NCBI GenBank assembly: GCA_965232515.1
Contig: CBDDPY010000002.1
Span: 2,784,001-2,848,000 of the forward strand
Source of the DNA: Alphaproteobacteria bacterium
GTDB lineage: Bacteria > Pseudomonadota > Alphaproteobacteria > GCA-2731375
DNA length: 64,000 nt
Reading direction: 5' to 3'
Positions 358-14,505 of this stretch are shown piece after piece. Within the stretch, counting starts at the first letter, position 1, and every line of letters starts with the position of its first letter. Made by a program: the position numbers and the translations under genes. Under the pieces are notes generated by a model, which worked only from the letters and a program-made list of their open reading frames with translations, did no database searches and was not told the origin of the DNA.

Positions 358-1476
358 CTAGTTGCTGCCGTAACGAGCCATGTTCATTTTGTCGACCTCG
401 GCGCTGATGCCGTCGACCTCGGCCCACAAGTCATCGACCAGCTTGCCGTCGATGCCGAAGTCCGTGGTGATCCATTGCTTCCAGGCCGGGCGGGCCAGCG
501 CCGCCATCTTCTCCTTCTCGGCCGCGGCGAGGATGTGGCATTCCTTGAATTCCTTGCAGGACGCGTTCCAGCCCTGAACCGCGGCGAGCGCGGCGATACC
601 GTGCGAGATCTGCACCGCCTCGCGGGCCGAATTGACAATCACCTGCTGGTAGTTCTCGGGCAGCGACTGATACCAGTTCTCGCTGACCATCCAGGAGATC
701 GAATTGTAAACGTGGCCGCTCCAGGTGGTGTAGTCGTTGACCTCCCAAAGCTTGAAGGCGCGGCTGACGCCGGGCGCGTTGAACTGACCGTCGGCAAGAC
801 CGGTGCCAAGCGCGGTGACCACTTCGCCCCAGGGTAACGGCGTCGCCGAGGCGCCGAGCGCCTTCATGGTGGCGACATGGGCCGGGTTCTCCTCGACGCG
901 GATCTTCAATCCCTTGATGTCGTCGACGGTCTTGATCAGCCGCTTGTTGTTCGTGAACGCGACGAAGCCGCCGCCGTCATCGAAGGTGCCGAGAAAGCGC
1001 AGCTTGCTGGAGGCGATGGCGCCCTTCATGAACTCGGCGTGCCAGGGGCCGTCGAAATAGGCCCGGGCCACGGCGTAGTTCGGAAACAGGAACGGCGTCG
1101 TGATGATCTGGTACTCGCGATAGAAGGACGACATGGCGCCGGACGACATCACGGCCGACTGCAGGGTCTTACCGACCTGCGCCTCCTTGCCGTTCTCGAC
1201 CTCGGAGCCGAGCGCGCCGCCGCCGAATATCTGCACATCGATGTCGCCGTCGGTCGCGGCCTCGACCAGCGCTTCGAAATGCACCAGCGCCGGATGAACC
1301 TCGTTGTTGGTCAGATCTTCCGGCAGCAGGTGCGCGATGACCATCTTGTATTCGGCGGCCTGCGCCGCCGGTACGGCGGGCCCGACCGTCAGCATCGCCG
1401 TCAAACCAAGGCCGATCGCGACCGCCGTCGCGCGAACGCCTTTGCGTGTCACTTGTCTGTCGAACGCCAACGTCAT
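358..1476 (-). CDS. dctP: TRAP transporter substrate-binding protein DctP
   Basis: Signal peptide, GGGALGSE, DIKGLKIRV, ALGASATPLPWGEVVTALGTGLADGQFN; adjacent to dctQ. Confidence 0.92.
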   Translation of the reverse strand: MTLAFDRQVTRKGVRATAVAIGLGLTAMLTVGPAVPAAQAAEYKMVIAHLLPEDLTNNEVHPALVHFEALVEAATDGDIDVQIFGGGALGSEVENGKEAQVGKTLQSAVMSSGAMSSFYREYQIITTPFLFPNYAVARAYFDGPWHAEFMKGAIASSKLRFLGTFDDGGGFVAFTNNKRLIKTVDDIKGLKIRVEENPAHVATMKALGASATPLPWGEVVTALGTGLADGQFNAPGVSRAFKLWEVNDYTTWSGHVYNSISWMVSENWYQSLPENYQQVIVNSAREAVQISHGIAALAAVQGWNASCKEFKECHILAAAEKEKMAALARPAWKQWITTDFGIDGKLVDDLWAEVDGISAEVDKMNMARYGSN

Positions 1477-1606
1477 AACGACCTCCCAACCCGTTCAGTT
1501 TTTCCAATAAAATTCGATTTATCTGATGAAAGTATGCGCAAGGCGGCCCTCGCGGTAAATCGAATTCGTTGCCGCGGTCCGACGTCGGCGTGTCGCCGGC
1601 GGTTTC

Positions 1607-2200
1607 CTAGTGCAGCAAACGCCGCAAGGTCTGCTGATCCGGCGCGCCCGTGGCGGTCAGCGAATTGTCCCGCTGGAAGCTCTGCAACGCGGCCTTGGTG
1701 GCAGGGCCGAAGGCGCCGTCGACGCTGCCCTGATAGTAGTTTCGTTCTTTCAGCGCCTGTTGCGTGCGCCGCAGGGTCTCGGCGTAGAGGTAGGTTCTGC
1801 CCTGCTCGCCCGGCAGCTCGAGCAGCTTCGAGCGGACGGCGATGCGCTCGTCTTTCAGCTTGCCGACCAGCGCCACCACCACATCGGCGAACCGGTCATC
1901 AGGGTTGTTGCTGCAGTGACTGCCGATCATTCTGGCCAAGAGGTCCGGGCTCTCGAAGGACAGCACGTCGAACGTGTCCGGTGAGAGGTGGTTGTAGGCC
2001 GAGACATAGCCCTCCAGCCACCCGCCGAACTGATAGAGCCGGTTCGTGCCGTTCTTGGCGGCATCGACGAACTGCGCGCAGTTCAATCGTCCGATGCCTT
2101 TCAGGGCGAAGGCGCCGTCCTTGTCGGCGGCGGACGCTATGGGCATCGCCAGCCAAAGAAACGCGGTTGCAAGGATCAATCTATGCGCGGTGGCGATCAT
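1607..2200 (-). CDS. Exported protein with a small helical N-domain (2 Cys, HdeA/Rap1a-like pattern) and a C-terminal peptidoglycan-binding (PG_binding_1) domain
   Basis: ATG at 2200 with GGAGAG upstream; signal peptide; QQALKERNYYQGSVDGAFGPATKAALQSFQRDNSLTATG is a classic PG_binding_1 motif. Confidence 0.8.
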   Translation of the reverse strand: MIATAHRLILATAFLWLAMPIASAADKDGAFALKGIGRLNCAQFVDAAKNGTNRLYQFGGWLEGYVSAYNHLSPDTFDVLSFESPDLLARMIGSHCSNNPDDRFADVVVALVGKLKDERIAVRSKLLELPGEQGRTYLYAETLRRTQQALKERNYYQGSVDGAFGPATKAALQSFQRDNSLTATGAPDQQTLRRLLH

Positions 2201-2254
2201 CTCTCCACGAAGCTCCCGAATTGTCATTCTTCCCGCACGGCCCGGCGCCGGTGG

Positions 2255-3529
2255 TCACCAGAGTCGGATCGGAAACGCCAGGGTCGCATCCAGGTCGGGC
2301 GCGTCCGACGTCAGGCCGACGCCGAGGCTGAAGTCGACCGAGGTCTGGTCCGTCAGGATGTAGGAAAAGCCGAACTGGAACTTGCCGACGGTGCCGGACG
2401 AGCCGGGCACGTCGAAGCCGTCGACGGTGCTCTTGCTCTGGAAATCCTGGCTCCAGCCGAAGTTGATCGACAGATCCGTGCTGAGCGCCACGGCCGACGC
2501 GATGCTGATGCCGACGATGTCGCCGGGGTCGACGTCGCCCACGGGCTTGTCGTCTTCGAGATTGAAGGTATAGCTGAGCGAGGCGATCAGCACGGCCGGG
2601 TCGACCGCCTTGACGAAGGTCACGGTCGGACGGATGGAGTGAAAGCCGGTGCCGAGCGCCAGATCGGCGTCGTTCTCGAACGGATCTTCCGCGGTCGGCG
2701 GTTTCCATTCGATGCGTGCCAATATGTCGGGCCAAGGTCCGCGGGCGAAGAAGACCTGATTGCTGAGGCCGATCTGGATGTCGCCGATGCCGTCGTTCTC
2801 GTCGTCGATCTCCTCGGCCGGCTGCGAGGCCGTAATGCGCTCCGAGCTGACGTAGCGGTAGGGGATGCTGATGTCGGCCTGGCTGTCGAAGGGCAGGCCG
2901 ACCCGGGCGCTGAACTCGCCGATCAGCGTGTCGCGCCGGACGCGCTCGGAAACGATGTCGCCGATCACCAGCACCGGCAGCAGCGCGAAGCCCTCGATGC
3001 TGATCGCGTCGAACGAGGAGTGCGAGTAGGTATAGCTGGTCTCGACCTCGAGGCCGCCCGGCGGCAGCAACAGGAGGTTGCGCCGCTGCAGCGCCGCCTC
3101 CAGGCCCCGGAGGTCTTCGCGGTGGATCACGGCGCCGGTTGAATCGTCCTGCGCGTCGGGCTCGGCCTGCGCGGCGGGCTCGGCCTGCGCCTGCGCGAGC
3201 GGCGGTTTCGGGCGCGGCGCATAGCGCGGCCCACCGAGCGATCCGTCCGGTGTCCGCACGCGCCCGATGCCGTTGATGACGTTGCCGAGATAGCTCGGCG
3301 CAACCGCCGGCGTCAGCGACAGGTTGATCTCGGGCTCGTCATCGCGTTGCGCGCGCTCGCGTTCGAGCTCCCGCGTCAGCGTGCCAACCTGGCCTTCAAG
3401 CCGCTCGATCCGGTCGAGCAGTTCCAGGATCAGCGTGTCGCGCGTGTCGTCGCTTAACGCCTGACCGAAGGCCGGCCCCGCGGCCAAGCCGATACCCGTC
3501 AGCAACGCCGCGAACGCCCGGTGCATCAT
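2255..3529 (-). CDS. fapF: FapF-like outer-membrane beta-barrel transporter
   Basis: Signal peptide, N-terminal coiled coil (LELLDRIERLEGQVGTLTRELE), Pro/Ala linker, amphipathic beta strands, GIGDIQIG, and C-terminal SLGVGLTSDAPDLDATLAFPIRLW matching the FapF-type GLTxDAPD end; 4-nt overlap with the C39 gene. Confidence 0.8.
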   Translation of the reverse strand: MMHRAFAALLTGIGLAAGPAFGQALSDDTRDTLILELLDRIERLEGQVGTLTRELERERAQRDDEPEINLSLTPAVAPSYLGNVINGIGRVRTPDGSLGGPRYAPRPKPPLAQAQAEPAAQAEPDAQDDSTGAVIHREDLRGLEAALQRRNLLLLPPGGLEVETSYTYSHSSFDAISIEGFALLPVLVIGDIVSERVRRDTLIGEFSARVGLPFDSQADISIPYRYVSSERITASQPAEEIDDENDGIGDIQIGLSNQVFFARGPWPDILARIEWKPPTAEDPFENDADLALGTGFHSIRPTVTFVKAVDPAVLIASLSYTFNLEDDKPVGDVDPGDIVGISIASAVALSTDLSINFGWSQDFQSKSTVDGFDVPGSSGTVGKFQFGFSYILTDQTSVDFSLGVGLTSDAPDLDATLAFPIRLW

Positions 3530-4344
3530 TGCCCGGCGGCATCGAGCCCGCTGCCCGATAGCGATACGGATTGATTGACGATGGAGGTGGTGAAATCGGT
3601 GCCGAAGCCTTCCAGCACCGAGGTAATGCGGCCCGAAAGGGAGCGGCGGGTGCGCAGCTCGAGCCGCCGGCTCATCAACGCGATGTTCCGGCGCTTGTCC
3701 GGAAACAGCAGCTCGACCCGCTCGAGTTCCAGCTCATGCCGGTCGGCACTTTCGGCGCCGCCCGAGCCGTCGAGGATGAAGAAGCCGATGCCGTCCTGCC
3801 AGGCATCGAGGAACTTGTCCCTGCGGATCACCGCATTGCCGACGGCGGGATCGGCGACAAAGACCCGGTCGCCCTTGACGTCCCGGAAGATGACGAAGTG
3901 ATTGAAGCCGAACAGGAACACCGGCACGATCGCCGGCATGTTGAACTCCTGCAGATCCTCGAGCGTCAGCTCGGCATAGCCTTTGGCGTCAAGGCCACGG
4001 GCGACGGCATACCGTTTCAGATCGAGCAGTGAGAAGCCGTCCCGCAGGATCGCGTTCAGCGACCGGCCGGACACCGGCACCAGCGTCTCAACGATCTCGC
4101 GTTCCTCGACCTCCAGGCCGTGCTGATAGCGCAGGATGGTCGCCAACGCGGCGGCACCGCAGGTGAAGTCCCAGTTCTGCCGAACCACCTGATTCTGGCG
4201 GATCTCCTGCAGCGACACGACCGACTTCGTGAAGCGTTGGCCGTTGATGCGAAAATCGGCAGCGTCAGCCGCCGGCGCCGCCGCGGCAACGATGCCGCAG
4301 AACACCAGGACTGACGCCGCTACAAGTCCACATGCAGATCTCAT
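3526..4344 (-). CDS. fapD: Stand-alone periplasmic C39 cysteine peptidase (FapD-like)
   Basis: Signal peptide; VVRQNWDFTCGAAALATIL (Gln and catalytic Cys), NHFVI (His), VADPAVG (Asp), GFSLLDLKRYA; no ABC domain. Confidence 0.88.
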   Translation of the reverse strand: MRSACGLVAASVLVFCGIVAAAAPAADAADFRINGQRFTKSVVSLQEIRQNQVVRQNWDFTCGAAALATILRYQHGLEVEEREIVETLVPVSGRSLNAILRDGFSLLDLKRYAVARGLDAKGYAELTLEDLQEFNMPAIVPVFLFGFNHFVIFRDVKGDRVFVADPAVGNAVIRRDKFLDAWQDGIGFFILDGSGGAESADRHELELERVELLFPDKRRNIALMSRRLELRTRRSLSGRITSVLEGFGTDFTTSIVNQSVSLSGSGLDAAGQ

Positions 4345-4351
4345 CCCGATT

Positions 4352-4789
4352 TTACTGAAACCCTCCGAGATTGGTCTGCGTCAGATTGTTGACCGTCGAA
4401 TCGACATTGATGTTCAGGTTCATGAGAACCTGGATCACCGCGTTGGCGGCATTGAGATTGACCAGGGCGCTGAGGTTCTGCTGCGCGCTGTCTGACACGT
4501 TGACGCTGCTGGTGACCGTGTTGGTCACGAAGGTCTGCGTCGGTTCCACCACTCCGATCGGAATGGCGCTCAATGTCACGTCCCCGGTGCCATCGACGGT
4601 GAACCGATTCCCCCCGACATCGTCGATCGCAAAGCTGAGTTGATTGGGCGCCGTGCTGGCCACTTCAAACGCGCCGGCCTTCACGGCGTCCAGTTCGTCG
4701 TCTGTCATCTCGCGGCCGCCGGCCTGGCTGACGCCGGCGGCCAACGAGAGACAAGCAACGAGTCCGACTAGCAGTCTTCCATGCGACAT
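4352..4789 (-). CDS. Secreted 145-aa putative minor fibre subunit with GG-type leader and one amyloid-like repeat
   Basis: Signal peptide ending SQA, then EMTDDELDAVKAG; C-terminal VNVSDSAQQNLSALVNLNAANAVIQVLMNLNINV...QTN; GGAGATACC before ATG is a weak RBS. Confidence 0.7.
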   Translation of the reverse strand: MSHGRLLVGLVACLSLAAGVSQAGGREMTDDELDAVKAGAFEVASTAPNQLSFAIDDVGGNRFTVDGTGDVTLSAIPIGVVEPTQTFVTNTVTSSVNVSDSAQQNLSALVNLNAANAVIQVLMNLNINVDSTVNNLTQTNLGGFQ

Positions 4790-4841
4790 GGAGGTATCTC
4801 CCGTCGTTCGAAGCTCGCTAAACCCCCGGAACGGCCGTTGC

Positions 4842-5828
4842 CTAGAACCGTCCCGTAATCACGTTGCTTTGACGCACTGTCCGCGATGAGGTCGTGAACG
4901 ACCCGCCGCAGCACCGGTTGACCCAAAGGTTCGAGCCCGTGCCGACGGCGCTGGAAGCCGCGTTGACGATCTTCAGGCCGGTGGCGTTGCTCTGCGCGGC
5001 GCCCGACAGCGTGACGTCGTCATCGGCGACCTTGGTGATGTCGCCGTTGCCGAGCGAGATCACTTCACCGGTCAGGCCCGTGCCTTCGGCTTCAAGCACG
5101 CTCGCGGCCGCGACGGCGGGCGTCGACGACGTGCCGATGTTGCGATCCGCCGTACAACCGCCACCAAAACAGAAGGCGGCATCGACCGGATCACCTTCCG
5201 ACCCGACTTCGAGGCCTGGACCGGAGAACTCGAACGGCCCAACTTCGATGCCGCCGGCATTGAGGTCTATAAAGGCCTCGCCAGCGACCGCGATATCGGT
5301 GTTGTTGGGCACCGACACCTCGATGACGCCAAGCACGTCGATTTCGAACTGCGCCTGGCTGGCCGAAACCGAACTGGTCGTCTGGTCGGTGTCGAGCGTG
5401 CCGGCCGCGGTCACGGTCGTGAAGTTGTTGAGCGCACCGGCGCCGGCATTCTGCGTCCGACTGGCGACGATCTCGTTGACCTGACTTGTGTCCGCGATCG
5501 TGTTCGAGAAGCTGGAGCTCCCCACCGCGCCTTCTTCGCCATTCTGAATGACGCTGATATTGACGGCGCTACCGATCGCGCTGTCAGCGCTGTTGAACAG
5601 CTCGAGGCCCGTTGCACCCTCCTGGGCATTGCCGTCCAGGTTAATTTCGCCGCGTGCGGAGATATTCACATCTCCGTCGCCCGCCTGGATCACGCCGCCA
5701 CTGAAGTCGGTCTCGCCACCGACAACCTGGGCGAGGCTGTTGTCGGTCATCTCGACCGGACCGGCAAACGCCGGCGTCGCCAGCAGGGCAATCACGCCGA
5801 CCCCTGCCGCTAGTTTTGCTAAAGTCAT
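4842..5828 (-). CDS. Secreted 328-aa putative amyloid-like fibre subunit (paralog B)
   Basis: ATG at 5828 preceded by GAGGAG; signal peptide ending AFA; EMTDNSLAQVVGG; two repeats; rich in G/S/T/N/A/V; ends in GRF. Confidence 0.75.
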   Translation of the reverse strand: MTLAKLAAGVGVIALLATPAFAGPVEMTDNSLAQVVGGETDFSGGVIQAGDGDVNISARGEINLDGNAQEGATGLELFNSADSAIGSAVNISVIQNGEEGAVGSSSFSNTIADTSQVNEIVASRTQNAGAGALNNFTTVTAAGTLDTDQTTSSVSASQAQFEIDVLGVIEVSVPNNTDIAVAGEAFIDLNAGGIEVGPFEFSGPGLEVGSEGDPVDAAFCFGGGCTADRNIGTSSTPAVAAASVLEAEGTGLTGEVISLGNGDITKVADDDVTLSGAAQSNATGLKIVNAASSAVGTGSNLWVNRCCGGSFTTSSRTVRQSNVITGRF

Positions 5829-5933
5829 CACCGTCTCCTCAAGAGCATTACCGCGCGGTCCCTGCTCGACCGTGTTTGTGTCGTGCCGACCGCGCTGTCT
5901 CATTACGTTCCCGTTCGTCTAGCGCCGCCGGTC

Positions 5934-6959
5934 CTAGAACCGGACATGCACGCTGTTGAACTGGTTGAGGTTGTTGGCGCCGCCGCTGAACGACCGCGAG
6001 CAGCAACGGTTGACCGACAGGTTCACACCGCTGCCCACGACGCTCGACGCGGCATTGACGACCTTCAGACCGGTGACGCCCTGCTGCGCGTTGTCGGTCA
6101 GGGAAACGACATCCTCGGTCGAGACCTCGATGCCGCCGCCGATGCCGTCTTCGCCTTCGCCGTTGCCGAGGCTGATTACTTCGCCGTGCAGGCCCTGGCC
6201 ACTGGCTTCGACAACCGACGCCGCGGCAACGGCCGGTCCTGACGTCGTGTCGTTTTCGCGACTGGCGTTACAGTTGCCGCCGGTCACGTAGCAGCCGGCG
6301 CCTTCGATGCCGGCATTGAGACTCGGTCCGTTGAGCGAGAAGACATCGACGTCGACGGAGAACGTCTCGATGTTGACCGTGGCGTCGCCTGCCATGGCGA
6401 AGCCCGTGCCTGTCGGCGCCGACACTTCAACGAGTCCGAGCACGTCCACGTCGATGGCGCCGGTGCTGACCGATGAGCTGTTCGTCGTGTTGTCCGTGGT
6501 CGCGATGCCGCTCGTGGTTGCGGTGGTGTAGTTGATGAGCGATTCCGCACTGGCGCTGTGGGCCGAGCTGAGCGTGATGATGTTTTCCTGGATCAAGTCC
6601 AGCGTCGAGTCGCTGGCCGAGCTGGTCGCGCCGGACAATGCCTCGAGACCGTTCTGCTCGACCGCGAGGTTGATACCGCTACCGATGTTGGAATGCGCCG
6701 TGTTGAACACTTCCAGCCCGGTCGCCATGCTCTGGGCGTCGCCCGAGAGATCGACGTCGCCGTTTTCGGTAAGCGTCACATTGCCGTCGCCGGCCGCGAT
6801 GATGCCGCCGGTGGGCGCGAGCGGGGTTTCGACGCTGAGCTCGCCCCCGACAACGCGCGCCAACGCGTCATCGCCCATTTCCTTCGGCGATCCAGCAAAC
6901 GCCGTTGCCGCGCCGAGGCACAGCACGCCGACCGCTGGCGTGAGGTATTTGAATGCCAT
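5934..6959 (-). CDS. Secreted 341-aa putative amyloid-like fibre subunit (paralog A)
   Basis: ATG at 6959 preceded by GAGGAG; signal peptide ending AFA; EMGDDALARVVGG; two repeats; colinear with paralog B; ends in VRF. Confidence 0.75.
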   Translation of the reverse strand: MAFKYLTPAVGVLCLGAATAFAGSPKEMGDDALARVVGGELSVETPLAPTGGIIAAGDGNVTLTENGDVDLSGDAQSMATGLEVFNTAHSNIGSGINLAVEQNGLEALSGATSSASDSTLDLIQENIITLSSAHSASAESLINYTTATTSGIATTDNTTNSSSVSTGAIDVDVLGLVEVSAPTGTGFAMAGDATVNIETFSVDVDVFSLNGPSLNAGIEGAGCYVTGGNCNASRENDTTSGPAVAAASVVEASGQGLHGEVISLGNGEGEDGIGGGIEVSTEDVVSLTDNAQQGVTGLKVVNAASSVVGSGVNLSVNRCCSRSFSGGANNLNQFNSVHVRF

Positions 6960-7039
6960 GGATTCTCTCCTCAACTACCGTGGTTGCAATCGATTCCAGT
7001 CACACCCTGGCGTCAGGGTGCACGATCCGATGCGCTGAA

Positions 7040-7260
7040 GAGGGCTTCAGACGTGATATGTCGCCACAAGGGCTTAGTATGGAATTTATTCGAGTATTGG
7101 TTTAGTCATGTCGCCCCCTACCGCGCCCGGAGTATCTGTTCCTATGACTTGATACCGTCATGTACCCTTAAGGCGACTACTTTCTTAATATTAACAAAGC
7201 CGAATTTCATTTGTGTGACCAAGAAGTGACATTTCCGAATATTTGGCCATTGACACACCT
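7040..7260. promoter_or_regulatory. AT-rich divergent promoter region (fibre operon / DMT transporter)
   Basis: Clearly lower GC than the flanks, non-coding, between divergent genes; no specific -35/-10 assigned. Confidence 0.5.
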
Positions 7261-7330
7261 CAGCGGCATGCGGGGAGGTCATGGCAGCGCTGCGGATTAA
7301 TCGTTTTGCCAAGAGTGGCGCGCATACTAA

Positions 7331-8302
7331 GTGGATGATCCTGAGGCGTTGAAACGCCGAACCGGAGAACGACCCATTACATCCGCCGTTGAGCGTACCG
7401 CCCCGTCGCAGGTGGCGGCATTGCGCGAGCCCGATAGCCGCGACGTGCTGATCGGCATCGGCTTCATGTGCCTGGCGGTCTGCGCACTGCCGGTCTTGAA
7501 CGCGTCCGCCAAGGTGCTGGTGCTGAGCTATCCGGTGGTGCAGGTGATCTGGGCCCGGTTCGCGGGCCACCTGCTTTACGTGCTGATCGCCTTTCTTCCG
7601 CGGCACGGCTGGCGCGTGTTCAAATCGCGCAGTCCGATCCGCCAGCTCGTGCGCTCGACGCTGTTGCTGGCCTCGACCGTGCTGTTCGTCAACGCCCTGC
7701 CCCATCTGCCGCTGGCGACGCTGTCGGCGATTACCTTCACGGCGCCCTTCATCGTCACCGCGCTGTCCGTGCCGATGCTGGGCGAACGCGTCGGCATCCG
7801 GCGCTGGTCGGCCGTTGCCGTCGGCTTTATCGGCGCGCTGATCATCATCCGGCCCGGCACCGAGTCGGCGCATTGGGCGATGCTGCTGGTGATCGGCAGC
7901 GCCAGTTGCTACGCCGTCTACCAGATCCTGACGCGACAGCTCGCCGCCGTCGACCGACCGGAGACCACCATGGTCTATACCGCAATCGTCGGCACCATCG
8001 GCATGAGCTTCGTCCTGCCGGCCCACCTGACCTGGCCGACGGAGACATCGCATTGGCTGCTGTTCGCCGGGCTTGGGCTGTTCGGCGGTCTCGGCCACAT
8101 CTTCGTGGTGAAGGCACTGCAATACGGGCCGGCGTCGGTGATCGCGCCGCTGGTCTATGCCGAGCTGCTGGGGGCAACGTTGCTGGGTTATGCGATCTTC
8201 GGCGATTTCCCTGATGCCATGACCCTGCTGGGCGCCGCCATTATCATCGCCTGCGGACTCTACATCGCCTATCGGGAAGGCGTCCGCCGCCGCGAAGGCT
8301 AA
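7331..8302 (+). CDS. DMT/EamA family transporter
   Basis: About 10 hydrophobic segments, LGERVGIRRWSAVAVGFIGALIIIRPG, ASVIAPLVY; start uncertain. Confidence 0.9.
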   Translation: MDDPEALKRRTGERPITSAVERTAPSQVAALREPDSRDVLIGIGFMCLAVCALPVLNASAKVLVLSYPVVQVIWARFAGHLLYVLIAFLPRHGWRVFKSRSPIRQLVRSTLLLASTVLFVNALPHLPLATLSAITFTAPFIVTALSVPMLGERVGIRRWSAVAVGFIGALIIIRPGTESAHWAMLLVIGSASCYAVYQILTRQLAAVDRPETTMVYTAIVGTIGMSFVLPAHLTWPTETSHWLLFAGLGLFGGLGHIFVVKALQYGPASVIAPLVYAELLGATLLGYAIFGDFPDAMTLLGAAIIIACGLYIAYREGVRRREG

Positions 8303-8911: not shown

Positions 8912-10591
8912 TCAAAACAGCCCCTCGACCCGTCCTTCCGCGTCGATATGGATCGCTTCCGCCGCCGGCACGCGCGGCAGGCCGGGCATGGTCATGATCT
9001 CGCCGCAGATCACCACCAGGAACTCGGCACCGGCCGACAATCGCACCTCGCGGACCGGCACGACATGGTTCGTCGGCGCGCCCTTGAGGTTGGGGTCGGT
9101 CGAAAAGCTGTACTGCGTCTTGGCGATGCAGACCGGGAAATGGCCGAAGCCCTGCGCCTGCAGGTCGCGGAACTGATTGCGCACTTTCTGGTCGGCGATG
9201 ATATCGTCGGCGCCGTAGATGTTGCGCGCAATGGTGCGGGTCTTGTCCCACAGGCTCATATCGTCGGCATAGAGCGTGCGGAATTGCGACGTGCCGCTCT
9301 CGGCCAACTCGGCCACCCGGGTCGCCATGTCGGTGATGCCGGCGCCGCCACTGGCCCAGTGGTTGCACTCGAACGCCTCGACGCCGAATTCGGCGCAGTA
9401 GCGGCGCACGGCCTCCAGCTCGGCGTCGGTGTCGGCGGTAAAGCGGTTGATGGCGACGACGGCCGGGACGCCATACTGGCCGACGTTGCGCAGGTGCCGG
9501 CCGAGATTGTCGAGCCCGGCCTCGACCGCCGCGACATCCTCCTCGCCCAGCGCGTCGCGGGCGACGCCGCCATGCATCTTGAGCGCCCGAATGGTCGCCA
9601 CGACGACCGCGGCGTCCGGCGCCAGACCGGCCTTGCGGCACTTGATGTCGAAGAACTTCTCGGCGCCGAGGTCGGCCCCGAAACCGGCCTCGGTGACGAC
9701 GAAGTCGGCGAGCTTCAGCGCCGCCTTCGTGGCCATGACCGAGTTGCAGCCGTGCGCGATGTTGGCGAACGGGCCGCCATGGATAAAGGCGGGGCTGTTC
9801 TCCAGCGTCTGCACCAGGTTGGGCATCATCGCGTCCTTCAGCAGCACCGACATGGGACCGTCGGCCTTCAGGTCGCGGGCGTAGACCGGTTCGCGCTCGC
9901 GGGTGTAGCCGACGACGATGTTGCCCAGACGCCGGCGCAGGTCGGCGAGATCGGTCGCCAGGCAGAAGATCGCCATGACCTCGGAGGCGACGGTGATGTC
10001 GAAGCCGGATTCGCGTGGAAAGCCGTTCGCCACGCCGCCGAGATTGATCACAGATTGACGCAGCGCCCGGTCGTTCATGTCGACCACTCGCCGCCAGCTT
10101 ATCCGACGGGCGTCGATCTGCAGGCCGTTACCCCAATAGATGTGGTTGTCGAGCAGCGCGGCGAGCAGGTTGTGCGCGGCGCCGATGGCGTGGAAGTCGC
10201 CGGTGAAGTGCAGATTGATGTCTTCCATCGGCACGACCTGGGCGTAGCCGCCGCCGGCCGCGCCACCCTTCACGCCGAAGCACGGTCCCAGGCTGGGCTC
10301 GCGCAGGCAGATCGCCGCCGCCTTGCCGATCTTGTTCAAACCGTCGCCCAGACCGACCGTCGTGGTGGTCTTGCCTTCGCCCGCCGGCGTCGGCGTGATC
10401 GCGGTGACCAGGATCAGCTTGCCGTCGGGCCGGTCGTTGAGCGCGGCGATATAATCGAGATCGACCTTGGCCTTGTGGGGGCCGTAGCGGAACAGATGTC
10501 CGCCCGGAATGTCGAGGCGCCCGGCAACCTGCTCGATGGGCTGCATTTCGGCTTCGCGGGCAATTTCGATATCTGTCTTTACGTCCGCCAT
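8912..10591 (-). CDS. fhs: Formate--tetrahydrofolate ligase
   Basis: [64 protein letters not shown]. Confidence 0.97.
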
Positions 10592-10619
10592 GGCGTGCTC
10601 CCGTCTTTTGTCTGGAGGC

Positions 10620-11321
10620 CTAGGTTGTAACCAGGTCGAGGACGGCGTTTCGGCCGATTGGCCCGCCGCCGAACTCATTGGCCGCGTCCATCAGGCAGCC
10701 CCAGAGATAATCGGCCGACGCCCAATCGAACAGCAGGTGAAAGCCAGGCACGTCGCCGAGATCGGCGCGAATCACGATTCCGTTGATCCGCGCGACCGAG
10801 GTCTGGGCGACCGCGTCTTCGGCAAACTTGTGCGCGCGCAGATCGACGGCGCAAAGCTTGGCAAACATCTCCACGGCACGCGCGCCGGTAATCAACAGCC
10901 AGGCATGACTGTCGCTGCGGGGCAGCGAATAAACGCCATCGGCCGTATCCATCGACCAGGCCGACATCAGGCGGGCGCAGAGATCGCCGGCAGCCGGCAA
11001 ATCGGACAGCAGCAGATGCTCTTCCACGCTGAGCCGCGCCAGGACCGCGCCGTCGTCCAACCGTCGGGCCAGGTTCGGCGCCGACGGCAGCGTCAGGCCC
11101 TGCAGCTCAAGCCACCCCGGCGCTTCGCGCCCCTTGAATCCGATACGCGGCAGGACGCTCAGATCCGCCAGTCCGAGCGTTCTCGCCCGGGATGTCTCGT
11201 CGGCGCCGTCGAACGACATCGGGATGCAGCCGCCGGCGACGGCCGTCCATTCCGCGCCGGCCGAGGTCAGTACGCGGTGCAGCGGCGACCGCCGGGCGAA
11301 ATCGGCCGGATTGCTCGCCAT
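10620..11321 (-). CDS. mgdD: Heterotetrameric sarcosine oxidase-like gamma subunit (MgdD type)
   Basis: [38 protein letters not shown]; last gene of a beta-delta-alpha-gamma set; ATG at 11321. Confidence 0.75.
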
Positions 11322-11323
11322 GG

Positions 11324-14227
11324 TCAAAGCGCTTGCCGATTGTTGTCGGGGTCGTAGAACGGCAACGGCACGACCTCGGCCTCGAACATGCGGCCGCCGG
11401 GGCCCTTGATCTGAAAGCGGGATCCGTTTTCGGTCTGGTCCGGCGCCACATAGGCGAGGCCGATGACCCGCCCCAGCATCGCCGACCGGGCGATGGAGGT
11501 GACCCGCCCGACGATGTCGCCGTCGCGGATCACCAAATGGCATTCGCTCGGCAACGGCTCGGCCGTATCGTCCAACGTAAAGCCGACCAGAGACCGGGCC
11601 AGGCCCTTGGCCTCGTGGATCTCGATCGCCCGCTTGCCGACAAAGTAAGGTTTCTTGCGGCTGATCGCCCAGGCCATCGCCGCCTCCGGCGGCGTCGTCA
11701 GGCCGTCGGTGTCCTGGCCAACGATGATGTGTCCCTTCTCCAGCCGCAGCACCCGCTGCGCCTCGACGCCGAACGGCACGATGCCGAAGCCCTTGCCGGC
11801 GGCCCGCAACGCGTCCCACAAGGCCTCGCCCAGACTGGCGCCGACATGGATCTCATAGCCGAGCTCGCCGACGAAACCGACCCGCAGGATGCGCGCCGGC
11901 AGACCGGCGACGATACCCTGCCGGACACCCATATACGGAAACGCCTCGGCCGACAGATCGACGTCGTCGCAAATCGTCTGCAGGACCCGGCGGGCATTGG
12001 GACCCGCGATATTGACGCCGGCATAGGCGGCGGTGACGTTCGCGACGTCGACGTCAAGCCGCCATTGCGCGTTGTGCCAAAGCATCTGGCGGTAGACGCC
12101 GTCGACGCCGCCGGTGGTCGCCGTGACATAGAAATGCCGGTCGTGGAAGCGGCAGGCGACGCCGTCATCGACCACGACACCGGTTCGGTCGGTCATCAGA
12201 ACATAACGCGCGCGGCCGACCGGCTGTTTCAGATAGCCGAAGGTGTACATGCGGTTCAGGAACTCGGCCGCGTCGGGCCCGCGCACGTCGAGGCCGCCGA
12301 GCGTCGAGACATCGATCAGGCCGACATTCTCGCGCACGTTCGCGACCTCGCGGTCGATGCAGGCCGGCCCGTCCTGCCTGGCCCCGTACCAGGCCGGACG
12401 CAGCCAGGCGCCGGCGACCATCATGTGGGCACCGGCGTCGACATGCCGGTGGTGCATGGCCGTGTGGCGTACGGGATGGAAGCCCCGGCCGGCCAGATGG
12501 CCGAATTTTTCGGCCGCGAAGGGTGGTCGCGCCGTGGTGACGCCGATCTCGGACATCGGCCGGCCGGTTTCCTCGGCGACCAGGCGCGCCGTGTTCAGCG
12601 CCGCCGTGCGACCCTGGCTGGGCCCCATGCCGACGGTCGAATAGCGCTTCAACAGCTCGATATGCTCGAAACCGTCAGCCACGCCGTTGCGCAGATCGGC
12701 GACGGTCAGGTCTTCATCGAAGTCGACGAAGTCCTTGCCCTTGCGGTGGCGGAAGATCGGAAAGTCGAAACAGACGTCAGGTGACGCGGCGGGTTCGAGC
12801 GCCGGCGGTACTTCGGCGGCGAAGCCGGCATCCACCGCCGCCTGAGCGCCGGCGCGACGGCCGTCGGCCAGCACCACATCGAGGTCGTAACAGCCGTTGA
12901 CCGAACCGGCCGCGCAGAGATGCGCCGGCACGTCCTCGATCCGGAAGGTATCGGCCTCGGCGTCGAAGCCGGCCCGCGCGCCCGCGTGCAGCAGCAGTTG
13001 CGCCGTCGGCGCGTAGCCGACGCTGAGGCAGAGCAGATCGCAGCGGATAACTTCCTTGGTCTCGGCCCACTCGCCGCGTCCGACGATCGCCGCCAGCTTG
13101 ACGCCGGCCAGGTGATTGCGGTCGGGCCGGGTGCCGGCCTCGCAAACCGTGAGGCCATCGCCGATCCGGATCAGACGATCCCGAACCTCGGCACGCAGCG
13201 GGCACTCCGGTGGCTCCGGCCGCAAATCGAGAACGCCGGACAACTCGACGCCGGCGTCGTCCAGGTCAAGCGCGACGCCGTAGCCATCGCTGTTCGCCGT
13301 AACGACCAGCGCGCGGTTGCCGGGCTTGACGCCATAGAGCCGGATCAGGCGCTGCGCCGCCGATCCCATGACGATGCCGGGCAGGTCGTTGTTGCGGAAC
13401 ACCATCGGCTGCTCGATCGAGCCGGTGGCGGCGACCACCGACGTCGCCCGCAGCTTGGTCATGCGGTTGCCGTGGATCAAAGGCAGCCAGTTGTCGGCGA
13501 ACCAGCCATTCGCCGTCGTCGATGTCATCACGCGGATGTTGCGTTCGGACGCGACGGCGTGGCTCAGTTCCGCGCATTGCTTGCCGGCGCGGCTGCCGTC
13601 GACGTCGAACCGGGCATAGCCGAGACTGCCGCCGAGCGTCGCGTTCTCGTCGATCAGGACGACTTCGGCGCCGGCCCGCGCGGCGTCCAGCGCGGCGCTC
13701 ATGCCGGCGGGGCCGCCGCCAATCACGGCGACATCGGCGAAGGCATAGGCCTTGTCGTAGTAGCCCGCCGGCGCCGCCGGATTGATGCGCCCCAGGCCAG
13801 CGGCGCGGCGGATCAGCTTTTCCCAATGGCGCCAGGCGCCCTTGGGCCGGAAAAATGCCTTGTAGTAGAAGCCGACCGGCAGGAAGCGCGCGACGCTTTC
13901 GATCATCCGGCCACGGTCGCGGGTCAGGCTGCCGAGATAATTTTGCCCGCGGGCTTCGAGGCCCTCATAGATCGGTTGGCGGTCGGCGAGCACGCTGGCC
14001 TCGTCGCCGATCTGCACCAGCGTGTTGGCGTCCTGGCCCGCCATCGTCAGCGGCCCGCGCGGCCGGTGGTACTTGAACGACCGCGACAGCAGCCAGACCC
14101 CGTTCGCCGCCAGGGCCGAGGCCAGAGTGTCGCCCGCGAAGCCCTCGTAGCTCTTGCCCTCGAAGCGGAACGAGATTGGCTCGGTCCGGTCGATGGCCGT
14201 GCCGTAGGCGTCGCCCAGTCGGCTCAT
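11324..14227 (-). CDS. mgdC: Sarcosine oxidase-like alpha subunit (MgdC type) with GcvT-like folate-binding C-terminus
   Basis: GDTLASALAANG, SRSFKYHRPRG, IGGGPAG, KRYSTVGMGPSQG, DVSTLG, LRLEKG, PFYDP; ATG at 14227. Confidence 0.85.
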   Translation of the reverse strand: MSRLGDAYGTAIDRTEPISFRFEGKSYEGFAGDTLASALAANGVWLLSRSFKYHRPRGPLTMAGQDANTLVQIGDEASVLADRQPIYEGLEARGQNYLGSLTRDRGRMIESVARFLPVGFYYKAFFRPKGAWRHWEKLIRRAAGLGRINPAAPAGYYDKAYAFADVAVIGGGPAGMSAALDAARAGAEVVLIDENATLGGSLGYARFDVDGSRAGKQCAELSHAVASERNIRVMTSTTANGWFADNWLPLIHGNRMTKLRATSVVAATGSIEQPMVFRNNDLPGIVMGSAAQRLIRLYGVKPGNRALVVTANSDGYGVALDLDDAGVELSGVLDLRPEPPECPLRAEVRDRLIRIGDGLTVCEAGTRPDRNHLAGVKLAAIVGRGEWAETKEVIRCDLLCLSVGYAPTAQLLLHAGARAGFDAEADTFRIEDVPAHLCAAGSVNGCYDLDVVLADGRRAGAQAAVDAGFAAEVPPALEPAASPDVCFDFPIFRHRKGKDFVDFDEDLTVADLRNGVADGFEHIELLKRYSTVGMGPSQGRTAALNTARLVAEETGRPMSEIGVTTARPPFAAEKFGHLAGRGFHPVRHTAMHHRHVDAGAHMMVAGAWLRPAWYGARQDGPACIDREVANVRENVGLIDVSTLGGLDVRGPDAAEFLNRMYTFGYLKQPVGRARYVLMTDRTGVVVDDGVACRFHDRHFYVTATTGGVDGVYRQMLWHNAQWRLDVDVANVTAAYAGVNIAGPNARRVLQTICDDVDLSAEAFPYMGVRQGIVAGLPARILRVGFVGELGYEIHVGASLGEALWDALRAAGKGFGIVPFGVEAQRVLRLEKGHIIVGQDTDGLTTPPEAAMAWAISRKKPYFVGKRAIEIHEAKGLARSLVGFTLDDTAEPLPSECHLVIRDGDIVGRVTSIARSAMLGRVIGLAYVAPDQTENGSRFQIKGPGGRMFEAEVVPLPFYDPDNNRQAL

Positions 14228-14505
14228 TCGCCATAGTCCTTGCGGCCGACGAAGAACTCGCTCGAGGGATAGGTGCGCAGGATCTCGTCCGTGCGGGTAT
14301 CGCGCTCGGCGATGAACCAGAAGGACGTCGGCACGTGGAACCACCATTCGCGGACGACGCCGGCGGCGTTGTCGTGCAGGAACAGATAGTCCGCCCACGC
14401 GCCCTCATCGGCGGTCGCGGGATCCGGTTCGTGGACCACTTCGCCGCCGCAGACGAACTCCGAGATGTTTCGGGGGCCGTTCAATGGGCAGCGCATGGTC
14501 TTCAT
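14224..14505 (-). CDS. mgdB: Sarcosine oxidase-like delta subunit (MgdB type)
   Basis: MKTMRCPLNGPRNISEF...EWWFH...ERDTRTDEI; C-terminal part of ORF 14224..15300. Confidence 0.85.
   Translation of the reverse strand: MKTMRCPLNGPRNISEFVCGGEVVHEPDPATADEGAWADYLFLHDNAAGVVREWWFHVPTSFWFIAERDTRTDEILRTYPSSEFFVGRKDYGE

Follow-up and report, generated by a model that had tools for sequence, protein, structure and literature searches.

A six-gene operon at positions 1607-6959 of the window, the 64,000-nucleotide stretch of contig CBDDPY010000002.1 (assembly GCA_965232515.1) analysed here, probably encodes a two-step secretion system that belongs to the FapD/FapF superfamily and exports its own family of cargo. 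Judged by its sequences, the operon is a separate branch of the Fap/Fil/Nap exporters and not a Fap amyloid operon. As in FapD/FapF-type exporters, a signal-peptide-bearing stand-alone C39 peptidase is encoded beside a barrel homologous to FapF, accompanied by three cargo proteins (A, B and C) and an exported peptidoglycan (PG)-binding protein. In each cargo protein, a double-glycine-type leader of 12 residues comes directly behind a Sec-type signal peptide. The kind of exporter is already known from Fap, Fil and Nap; what is undescribed is the cargo family A/B/C. The six genes are the following (aa, amino acids).

5934-6959, minus strand: cargo A, 341 aa from the ATG at 6959; no Pfam or NCBIfam family
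4842-5828, minus strand: cargo B, 328 aa from an internal ATG; paralogue of A with 46% identity
4352-4789, minus strand: cargo C, 145 aa; signal peptide and leader followed by a single module
3526-4344, minus strand: stand-alone, periplasmic C39 peptidase, 272 aa; PF03412, 68.5 bits
2255-3529, minus strand: FapF-family outer-membrane barrel, 424 aa; FapF is its sole match in the PDB
1607-2227, minus strand: exported PG-binding protein, 206 aa; PF01471, 58.2 bits

In the list of open reading frames (ORFs), these six co-oriented genes lie exactly where an earlier reading of the letters alone (the sequence-only reading) had placed them. The peptidase and barrel genes share 4 nucleotides (nt; 3526-3529), as that reading had also noted, and the remaining gaps measure 7-52 nt. 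The longest ORF of A begins at a TTG (6974), and a GGAGAG ribosome-binding site precedes the ATG taken here; the start of B is supported by its database relatives, which are likewise 328 aa long. The signal peptides of all six proteins and the barrel's N-terminal coiled coil (residues ~28-62) were judged by eye, without a predictor.

A FapD/FapF-type peptidase and barrel

Comparison against the NCBIfam models revealed nearly equal scores of the peptidase for FilB (118.8 bits, cut-off 475) and FapD (NF058616; 118.0 bits, cut-off 330). It also aligns with LahT (6mpz) and PCAT1 (4ry2) over their double-glycine peptidase domains, and an alignment of 22 sequences shows no variation at the catalytic residues Gln56, Cys62, His149 and Asp165. 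On this basis the peptidase is a FapD homologue with an intact catalytic set, below the equivalog level. Because the protein has its own signal peptide, it would act in the periplasm. In a tree of C39 peptidases, those of A/B/C-type loci are nearest to the peptidase of the window, without support.

The barrel protein consists of a signal peptide, a heptad-like segment, a Pro/Ala-rich linker and the barrel proper (residues 158-421). Search against solved structures in the PDB returned FapF as the sole match, with an E-value of 9e-22 over residues 158-421, and the NCBIfam models gave 111 bits for FapF (NF058560, cut-off 700) and 51.1 bits for FilC (cut-off 630). A double-glycine-type leader was looked for at the N-terminus of the barrel and none was seen.

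A quick IQ-TREE search over 59 rows, unrooted relative to MetA-type channels, placed the barrel of the window and 19 barrels of A/B/C-type loci in one group, with a Shimodaira-Hasegawa-like approximate likelihood-ratio test (SH-aLRT) value of 100. The window's barrel falls outside the Fap-proper clade (SH-aLRT 98), which takes in a second barrel of the same genome, that of locus 3 described below. A middle Fap-like group (SH-aLRT 99) and a distant FilC-like clade (SH-aLRT 100) make up further branches. Among 401 genomes sampled from the phylum, 31 have FapF-family matches (5 above the cut-off) and 13 have FilC-like matches (0 above the cut-off); the unpublished genome G423 supplies one row of the middle group and is one of the seven same-class genomes in the FapF count.

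Cargo proteins and their leader

The leader of the cargo proteins follows a consensus of Leu/Met at -12, Asp at -10, Leu/Met at -7, Val/Ile at -4 and Ala/Gly-Gly at -2/-1, with the motifs MGDDALARVVGG in A, MTDNSLAQVVGG in B and MTDDELDAVKAG in C. The three leaders lie as follows.

6843-6893, minus strand: leader of A, residues 23-39, GSPKEMGDDALARVVGG; predicted cut after G39
5715-5762, minus strand: leader of B, residues 23-38, GPVEMTDNSLAQVVGG
4673-4720, minus strand: leader of C, residues 24-39, GGREMTDDELDAVKAG

Classical double-glycine leaders have hydrophobic residues at -12, -7 and -4 and Gly at -2/-1, which is the same spacing as in the cargo leaders. Among 74 sequences of the A/B family, position -12 is L/M in 72, -10 is D in 56, -7 is L/M in 73, -4 is V/I/L in all 74, -2 is A/G in all 74 and -1 is G in 67. 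The C family keeps positions -12, -7, -4, -2 and -1 in 16/16 sequences. Scanning the whole genome with the leader pattern gave 13 matches, and a signal peptide precedes the motif in A, B and C only.

Complex prediction of A residues 23-62 on the peptidase reached a score of 0.84, compared to 0.24 for the best of 3 controls. Among solved complexes 58 of 80 attain the mark set for such dockings, and among mismatched pairs 2 of 110 do. The docking runs agree in at least 73% of contacts, with a predicted local distance difference test (pLDDT) value of at least 57 for the partner. In the predicted interface, residues 59-63 and 146-150 of the peptidase, around Cys62 and His149, face residues 23-30 and 32-42 of the leader segment. 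The leader of A may thus dock onto the peptidase as modelled; since leader-peptidase complexes have already been solved, the pass may also reflect likeness to those complexes and not binding by this particular copy.

None of the three cargo proteins matched a Pfam or NCBIfam family, nor did they match the models of FapA, FapB/FapC (NF058557, NF058558) or FapE at E <= 1. The FapA and FapE models had no match among the other three proteins of the operon either. A word-indexed search of 5.8 billion proteins led from A to 5 clusters (8000 candidates scored) and from C to 3 clusters (226 candidates). With a profile of A and B, 118 of 1.84 billion representatives were found at E <= 0.001, including 40 at <= 1e-10 and 7 at <= 1e-30. 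The same profile had no match below E 0.11 among PDB sequences, the best ESM Atlas score with A was 0.80, at chance level, and a literature search found no publication on the A/B/C family, returning papers on Fap, Fil as a vaccine antigen and Nap only. As far as sequence comparison goes, A/B/C is a rare, unnamed cargo family with no detectable relation to FapB/C.

Alignments revealed a common plan for the family, in which the signal peptide and the 12-residue leader are followed by a module of about 70 residues with the pattern Q-x9-N-x10-N ... Q-x-N. A and B have two modules each, separated by a variable centre that contains a Cys pair, and C has one. The modules of A, with the residues invariant in the alignments, are given below.

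6567-6800, minus strand: module 1 of A, residues ~54-131; invariant Q76, N97, Q124 and N126
5940-6176, minus strand: module 2 of A, residues ~262-340; invariant Q292, N302, N313, Q333 and N335

The two modules of A are clearly related to each other by hhalign (probability 99.2%, E 1.3e-19), as are the module of C and module 2 of A (95.1%, E 3.5e-8), and C as a whole aligns with the N-terminal part of the A/B family (97.7%, E 1.8e-12). The family as delimited here combines a signal peptide, an L-x-D-x-x-L-x-x-V/I-x-A/G-G leader, Gln/Asn modules and an adjoining C39 gene and barrel gene, all of which are present in the window. Members of the A/B family are mostly 350-420 aa long, and a few reach 1100-1400 aa with 8-15 matched stretches. 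The giant relatives P0017, P0018 and P0020 have 1159 to 1401 aa and 8 to 15 such stretches, from which it appears that the module can be multiplied many times. The mature forms of A, B and C have calculated sizes of 106 to 302 residues, are acidic (calculated isoelectric point, pI, ~4) and are rich in Gly, Ser, Ala, Val, Thr and Asn. The AlphaFold2 (AF2) model of A, based on 74 sequences, is all-beta, with pLDDT of ~90 over residues 60-100 and >90 over ~280-310; peaks >90 occur in both modules, and the central third is poorly predicted.

A scan with one genome per species yielded 24 loci encoding relatives, from Gammaproteobacteria (Ectothiorhodospira, Marinobacter and metagenome-assembled genomes of Pseudomonadales) and Desulfobacterota (Desulfuromusa, Desulfobacteraceae). 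The C39 and barrel genes stand together with an A-like gene or two, a longer B-like gene and a C-like gene in 19 of the loci, and in the remaining 5 the contig ends inside the cargo genes. The order A-like, B-like, C-like, C39, barrel is kept except in L035, where cargo and machine genes are divergent. Its recurrence in 19/24 loci argues that the arrangement does not reflect chance. The A/B family was found in 3/401 sampled same-class genomes, the window's own genome counted, and one of these three, G443, encodes A-like, C-like, C39 and barrel genes. The operon defines an unannotated cargo family with a gene order conserved in at least two phyla.

These results bear out part of the sequence-only reading, which had inferred a FapD/FapF-related core exporting a different family of putative fibre proteins. 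FapF as the sole PDB match of the barrel, together with the 118 bits of the peptidase against FapD, agrees with the core it described, and the cargo indeed lies outside the FapA, FapB/C and FapE families. Two checks that could have told against that reading also came out for it: relatives of A/B/C co-occur with C39 and barrel genes in the neighbourhood survey, and the barrel groups within the FapF/FilC superfamily, where it belongs to a distinct clade. What that reading overlooked is the leader on A, B and C, the fact that the peptidase matches FilB equally well, the genome's two further Fap-like loci (one of them with a PG-binding gene) and Nap.

Genomic setting

Besides the operon of the window, the 7.39-Mb genome has two further peptidase-barrel loci. 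Locus 3 (L012, G000:C2:7108000-7124000) is a near-canonical fap operon, which encodes a FapB-like protein, five tandem FapC-like proteins (279-285 aa), FapD (265 bits), a FapE-like protein, a PG-binding homologue and FapF (422 bits). Locus 2 (L011, G000:C2:6170000-6186000) is an intermediate Fap-like locus with three FapB/C-like proteins, a C39 peptidase (142 bits against FapD) and a 271-aa lipoprotein-like protein with an internal LDESEMATERGA motif; its barrel (164 bits against FapF) is encoded on the opposite strand, ~2 kb away. The FapE family has matches at loci 2 and 3 only, the window being without one. Three exporter loci in one genome offer a natural three-way comparison. The genome encodes GcrA, a protein typical of Alphaproteobacteria, which fits that class without fixing it. 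Hits of a plasmid protein search came mainly from Rhizobium, Sinorhizobium and Phaeobacter, yet each had <60% identity and the first was on a Pseudomonas plasmid, so that they do not decide the taxon. The sequence-only reading had given Gamma-, Beta- and Deltaproteobacteria as the main groups from which Fap is described, in agreement with Dueholm 2013, where, in the accessible part of the paper, Fap is restricted to these three groups; if the genome is alphaproteobacterial, its near-canonical fap operon widens that range.

The PG-binding protein has a C-terminal PG_binding_1 domain (58.2 bits) and an N-terminal domain that matches no family. Homologues are encoded immediately upstream of a FapF-like barrel in L049 (G180), L054 (G228) and L045 (locus 3 of this genome), these three being the only same-class members of the Fap-proper clade. 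No homologue was found in the 24 gammaproteobacterial and Desulfobacterota loci, nor in L092. The same genome has four more full-length paralogues, one in locus 3 and three elsewhere. By this distribution of homologous sequences, the gene is an accessory gene specific to the lineage of the window.

Upstream of the operon lies one further feature.

6960-7330, minus strand: intergenic region, with the GGAGAG site before the ATG of A, read directly

GC content drops to about 0.59 in this region. Within positions 1300-7500, a scan for sigma-70-like promoters found no site, and a terminator scan gave four terminator-like sites against 4.7 expected. The flanks of the operon are unrelated to it, with a gene for a TRAP solute-binding protein below and one for an EamA-type transporter above. 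Farther away lie two minus-strand ORFs of ordinary one-carbon metabolism that have no relation to the operon: a formate-tetrahydrofolate ligase-like one at 8912-10678, an assignment made by eye from the sequence, and a sarcosine oxidase alpha-like one at 11324-14398. The latter has 52-57% identity to genes on plasmids whose annotated neighbours are sarcosine oxidase delta subunits.

Three RNA-seq libraries from two studies contain contigs 95-99% identical to the operon. In library X4, 29/30 bins are covered, flanks included. X8 and X9 each contain one long contig (1514 and 1182 nt) that runs through B and C into the 5' end of the peptidase gene, with short low-depth pieces only elsewhere on the operon. 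This uneven cover suggests that the cargo genes are transcribed in a close relative. At position 4350, the strain in X8 and X9 is one base short in the 7-nt spacer between the C and peptidase genes.

Proposed mechanism, alternatives and known systems

We propose that Sec would carry the precursors of A, B and C to the periplasm, where the C39 peptidase would recognise the leader and cut after Gly-Gly (Ala-Gly in C), and that the largely unfolded cargo would then cross the FapF-type pore. Outside the cell, the ~70-residue Gln/Asn-ladder modules may pack as a beta-rich surface assembly, for which the one-module C may serve as cap, nucleator or anchor, and the PG-binding protein may tether the apparatus to the cell wall. 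These last two steps are more speculative than the first three. Because the recognition sequence is near-canonical and sits at the same place in A, B and C, the target of this class of enzyme, and the coupling of cutting to export, should be readily addressable in this operon.

Several points weigh against this proposal. We infer cleavage, export and assembly of A, B and C from sequence and from a docking prediction, and both the docking and the AF2 model use P0007, a database representative 99% identical to A of the window. Confidence of the model is middling (mean pLDDT 69.3; predicted template modelling score 0.50), and an alignment of five sequences gave an unusable model with a pLDDT of 25.9. 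Structural similarity search of the model against the PDB using Foldseek returned 0 matches at E <= 0.001, beta-solenoids included, and in the VIA wide fold search 7 of 48,161 chains reached Z >= 2, the best with Z 2.5; at the level of the model, neither a new nor a known fold is demonstrated. Profile comparison of the A/B family with the FapB/C-like proteins of the same genome gave an hhalign probability of 7.8%, with the signal peptide alone aligned. In the C39 tree, the peptidase of the window has no supported placement, on an end branch of 1.75 and in no starred set, and its barrel sits on a long branch of 1.38 in the barrel tree. Finally, the RNA evidence for transcription is weak, DNA carry-over being also conceivable.

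One alternative accepts the exporter as proposed and takes A, B and C for soluble or surface effectors, such as adhesins, pore-formers or bacteriocin-like proteins, instead of fibre subunits. Nap provides a precedent, as described in the accessible part of the report on it (PMC11798529). The weak fold matches of A are mostly long beta-hairpins of pore-forming toxins (lysenin, Z 2.5; iota toxin pore, Z 2.2), joined by similar toxin rows in Foldseek at E above 0.6, and the badly predicted central third of A leaves room for such a function. However, all these toxin-like matches are at chance level, and the ORF list of the operon has no immunity-like gene. The cargo proteins are moreover large, acidic and modular, and their many-module relatives fit structural repeat proteins better than toxins. 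We therefore regard effector cargo as unlikely, and the secretion of a modular, possibly fibre-forming cargo as the better account.

A genuine but strongly diverged Fap amyloid operon, with A, B and C as FapC, FapB and FapE beyond recognition, would explain why peptidase and barrel match FapD and FapF, why six genes have the cargo ahead of both, and why the cargo leader shares its spacing with a motif conserved at the FapE N-terminus across 10 Fap loci; the conserved Gln/Asn residues are also reminiscent of Fap and curli repeats. Yet none of the cargo proteins matches a Fap subunit model at E <= 1, and even the FapB/C-like proteins of the same genome align with the A/B family over the signal peptide only. 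The scores of 118 and 111 bits remain far below the cut-offs of 330 and 700, the barrel belongs to a clade separate from Fap proper, and the genome already has a near-canonical fap operon, with much higher scores for FapD and FapF. Such a divergence is, in our estimate, very improbable. That the barrel is an uptake channel of the MetA/phenol-pathway type, adjoining secreted proteins by coincidence, is scarcely credible: it does match Pfam Phenol_MetA_deg (53.9 bits, cut-off 22), but so does the near-canonical FapF of the same genome, so that the family covers FapF relatives and its label is no argument against kinship with Fap, while FapF is the sole solved relative, the gene overlaps that of the peptidase by 4 nt, and the neighbourhood kept in 19/24 loci contradicts coincidence.

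Compared to Fap (fapABCDEF of Pseudomonas, with FapF as a trimeric barrel; PDB 5O65, 5O67 and 5O68), the operon of the window likewise encodes a stand-alone C39 peptidase of the periplasm whose catalytic set is intact and a FapF-related barrel extended at its N-terminus into the periplasm, and genes for Sec-dependent cargo lie upstream. In contrast, it lacks members of FapA, FapB/C and FapE, its peptidase and barrel score below the FapD and FapF cut-offs, its cargo is unrelated by profile, its barrel forms a separate clade, and it has an additional PG-binding gene; it is accordingly not assigned to Fap. Rouse et al. 2017, in the accessible part of the paper, place FapD in the periplasm and report that its catalytic Cys is required for secretion, while calling its target unclear and canonical C39 sites lacking in Fap. 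A 2026 preprint on FapD states an involvement in precursor processing and no more.

In 10 Fap loci (among L040-L053), the FapE encoded between FapD and FapF has the motif L-x-D-x-E-L/M-x-x-L/M-R-G-R/K soon after the signal peptide. Its spacing is that of double-glycine leaders and of the window's cargo leaders. The two systems differ in that all three cargo proteins of the window carry the leader, with Gly at -1, whereas in Fap it is found in FapE alone, with Arg/Lys at -1. From its sequence, we regard this FapE motif as a candidate recognition site of FapD. The accessible part of Rouse 2017 considers GG/GA motifs of FapE without spelling out the N-terminal motif.

In the putative pilus system Fil (FilA with DUF6160, the C39 peptidase FilB, the barrel FilC and the FadL-like FilD; NF050077 to NF050080), the peptidase is as close to that of the window as FapD is by score. 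The two differ in that the window has no DUF6160 cargo, FadL-like gene or MalM-like gene, and its barrel, with 51 bits against FilC, belongs to a separate clade. Pfam searches found neither DUF6160 nor Toluene_X among the six proteins of the window, whereas both are present in the Fil-like locus L084. With FilA and FilD absent and the FilB and FilC cut-offs not reached, the operon is not a Fil locus either. A likeness exists at the leader, since the FilA-like DUF6160 protein of that locus (L084:6289-6747, plus strand) has MDDAALSGITGQ right behind its signal peptide. This segment has the spacing of the cargo leaders, with Gln at -1.

The Neisseria nap island (PMC11798529) resembles the operon in that, according to the accessible part of the report, it encodes a C39 peptidase (NapP) and a FapF homologue (NapF) beside cargo with a double-glycine motif, the peptides NapA/B/C. 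Compared by description and not by sequence, Nap cargo consists of cationic peptides <10 kDa that promote autolysis, whereas that of the window consists of acidic repeat-module proteins.

It is conceivable, though we hold it doubtful, that a Sec signal plus a double-glycine-type leader is the address tag of all these exporters (FapE in Fap, FilA in Fil, Nap and A/B/C), that removal of the leader by the periplasmic C39 peptidase is coupled to passage through the FapF-type pore, and that stacking of the A/B/C modules through their invariant Gln/Asn ladders yields a functional-amyloid-like fibre, the third of its kind in Gram-negative bacteria after curli and Fap. Since every cargo protein of the window carries the canonical tag, the operon would be the clearest natural test case for such a general tag.

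Beyond the FapF-type exporters, the fold and the catalytic residues of the peptidase match those of PCAT1, ComA and LahT, as seen in the alignment with PCAT1 and LahT. Unlike in these ATP-binding cassette (ABC) transporters that contain a peptidase, the peptidase of the window has no ABC fusion, bears a signal peptide and would act in the periplasm. The position of the leader differs in the same sense: in the window's cargo it stands behind a Sec signal peptide, and not at the start of the protein as in the cargo of those transporters.

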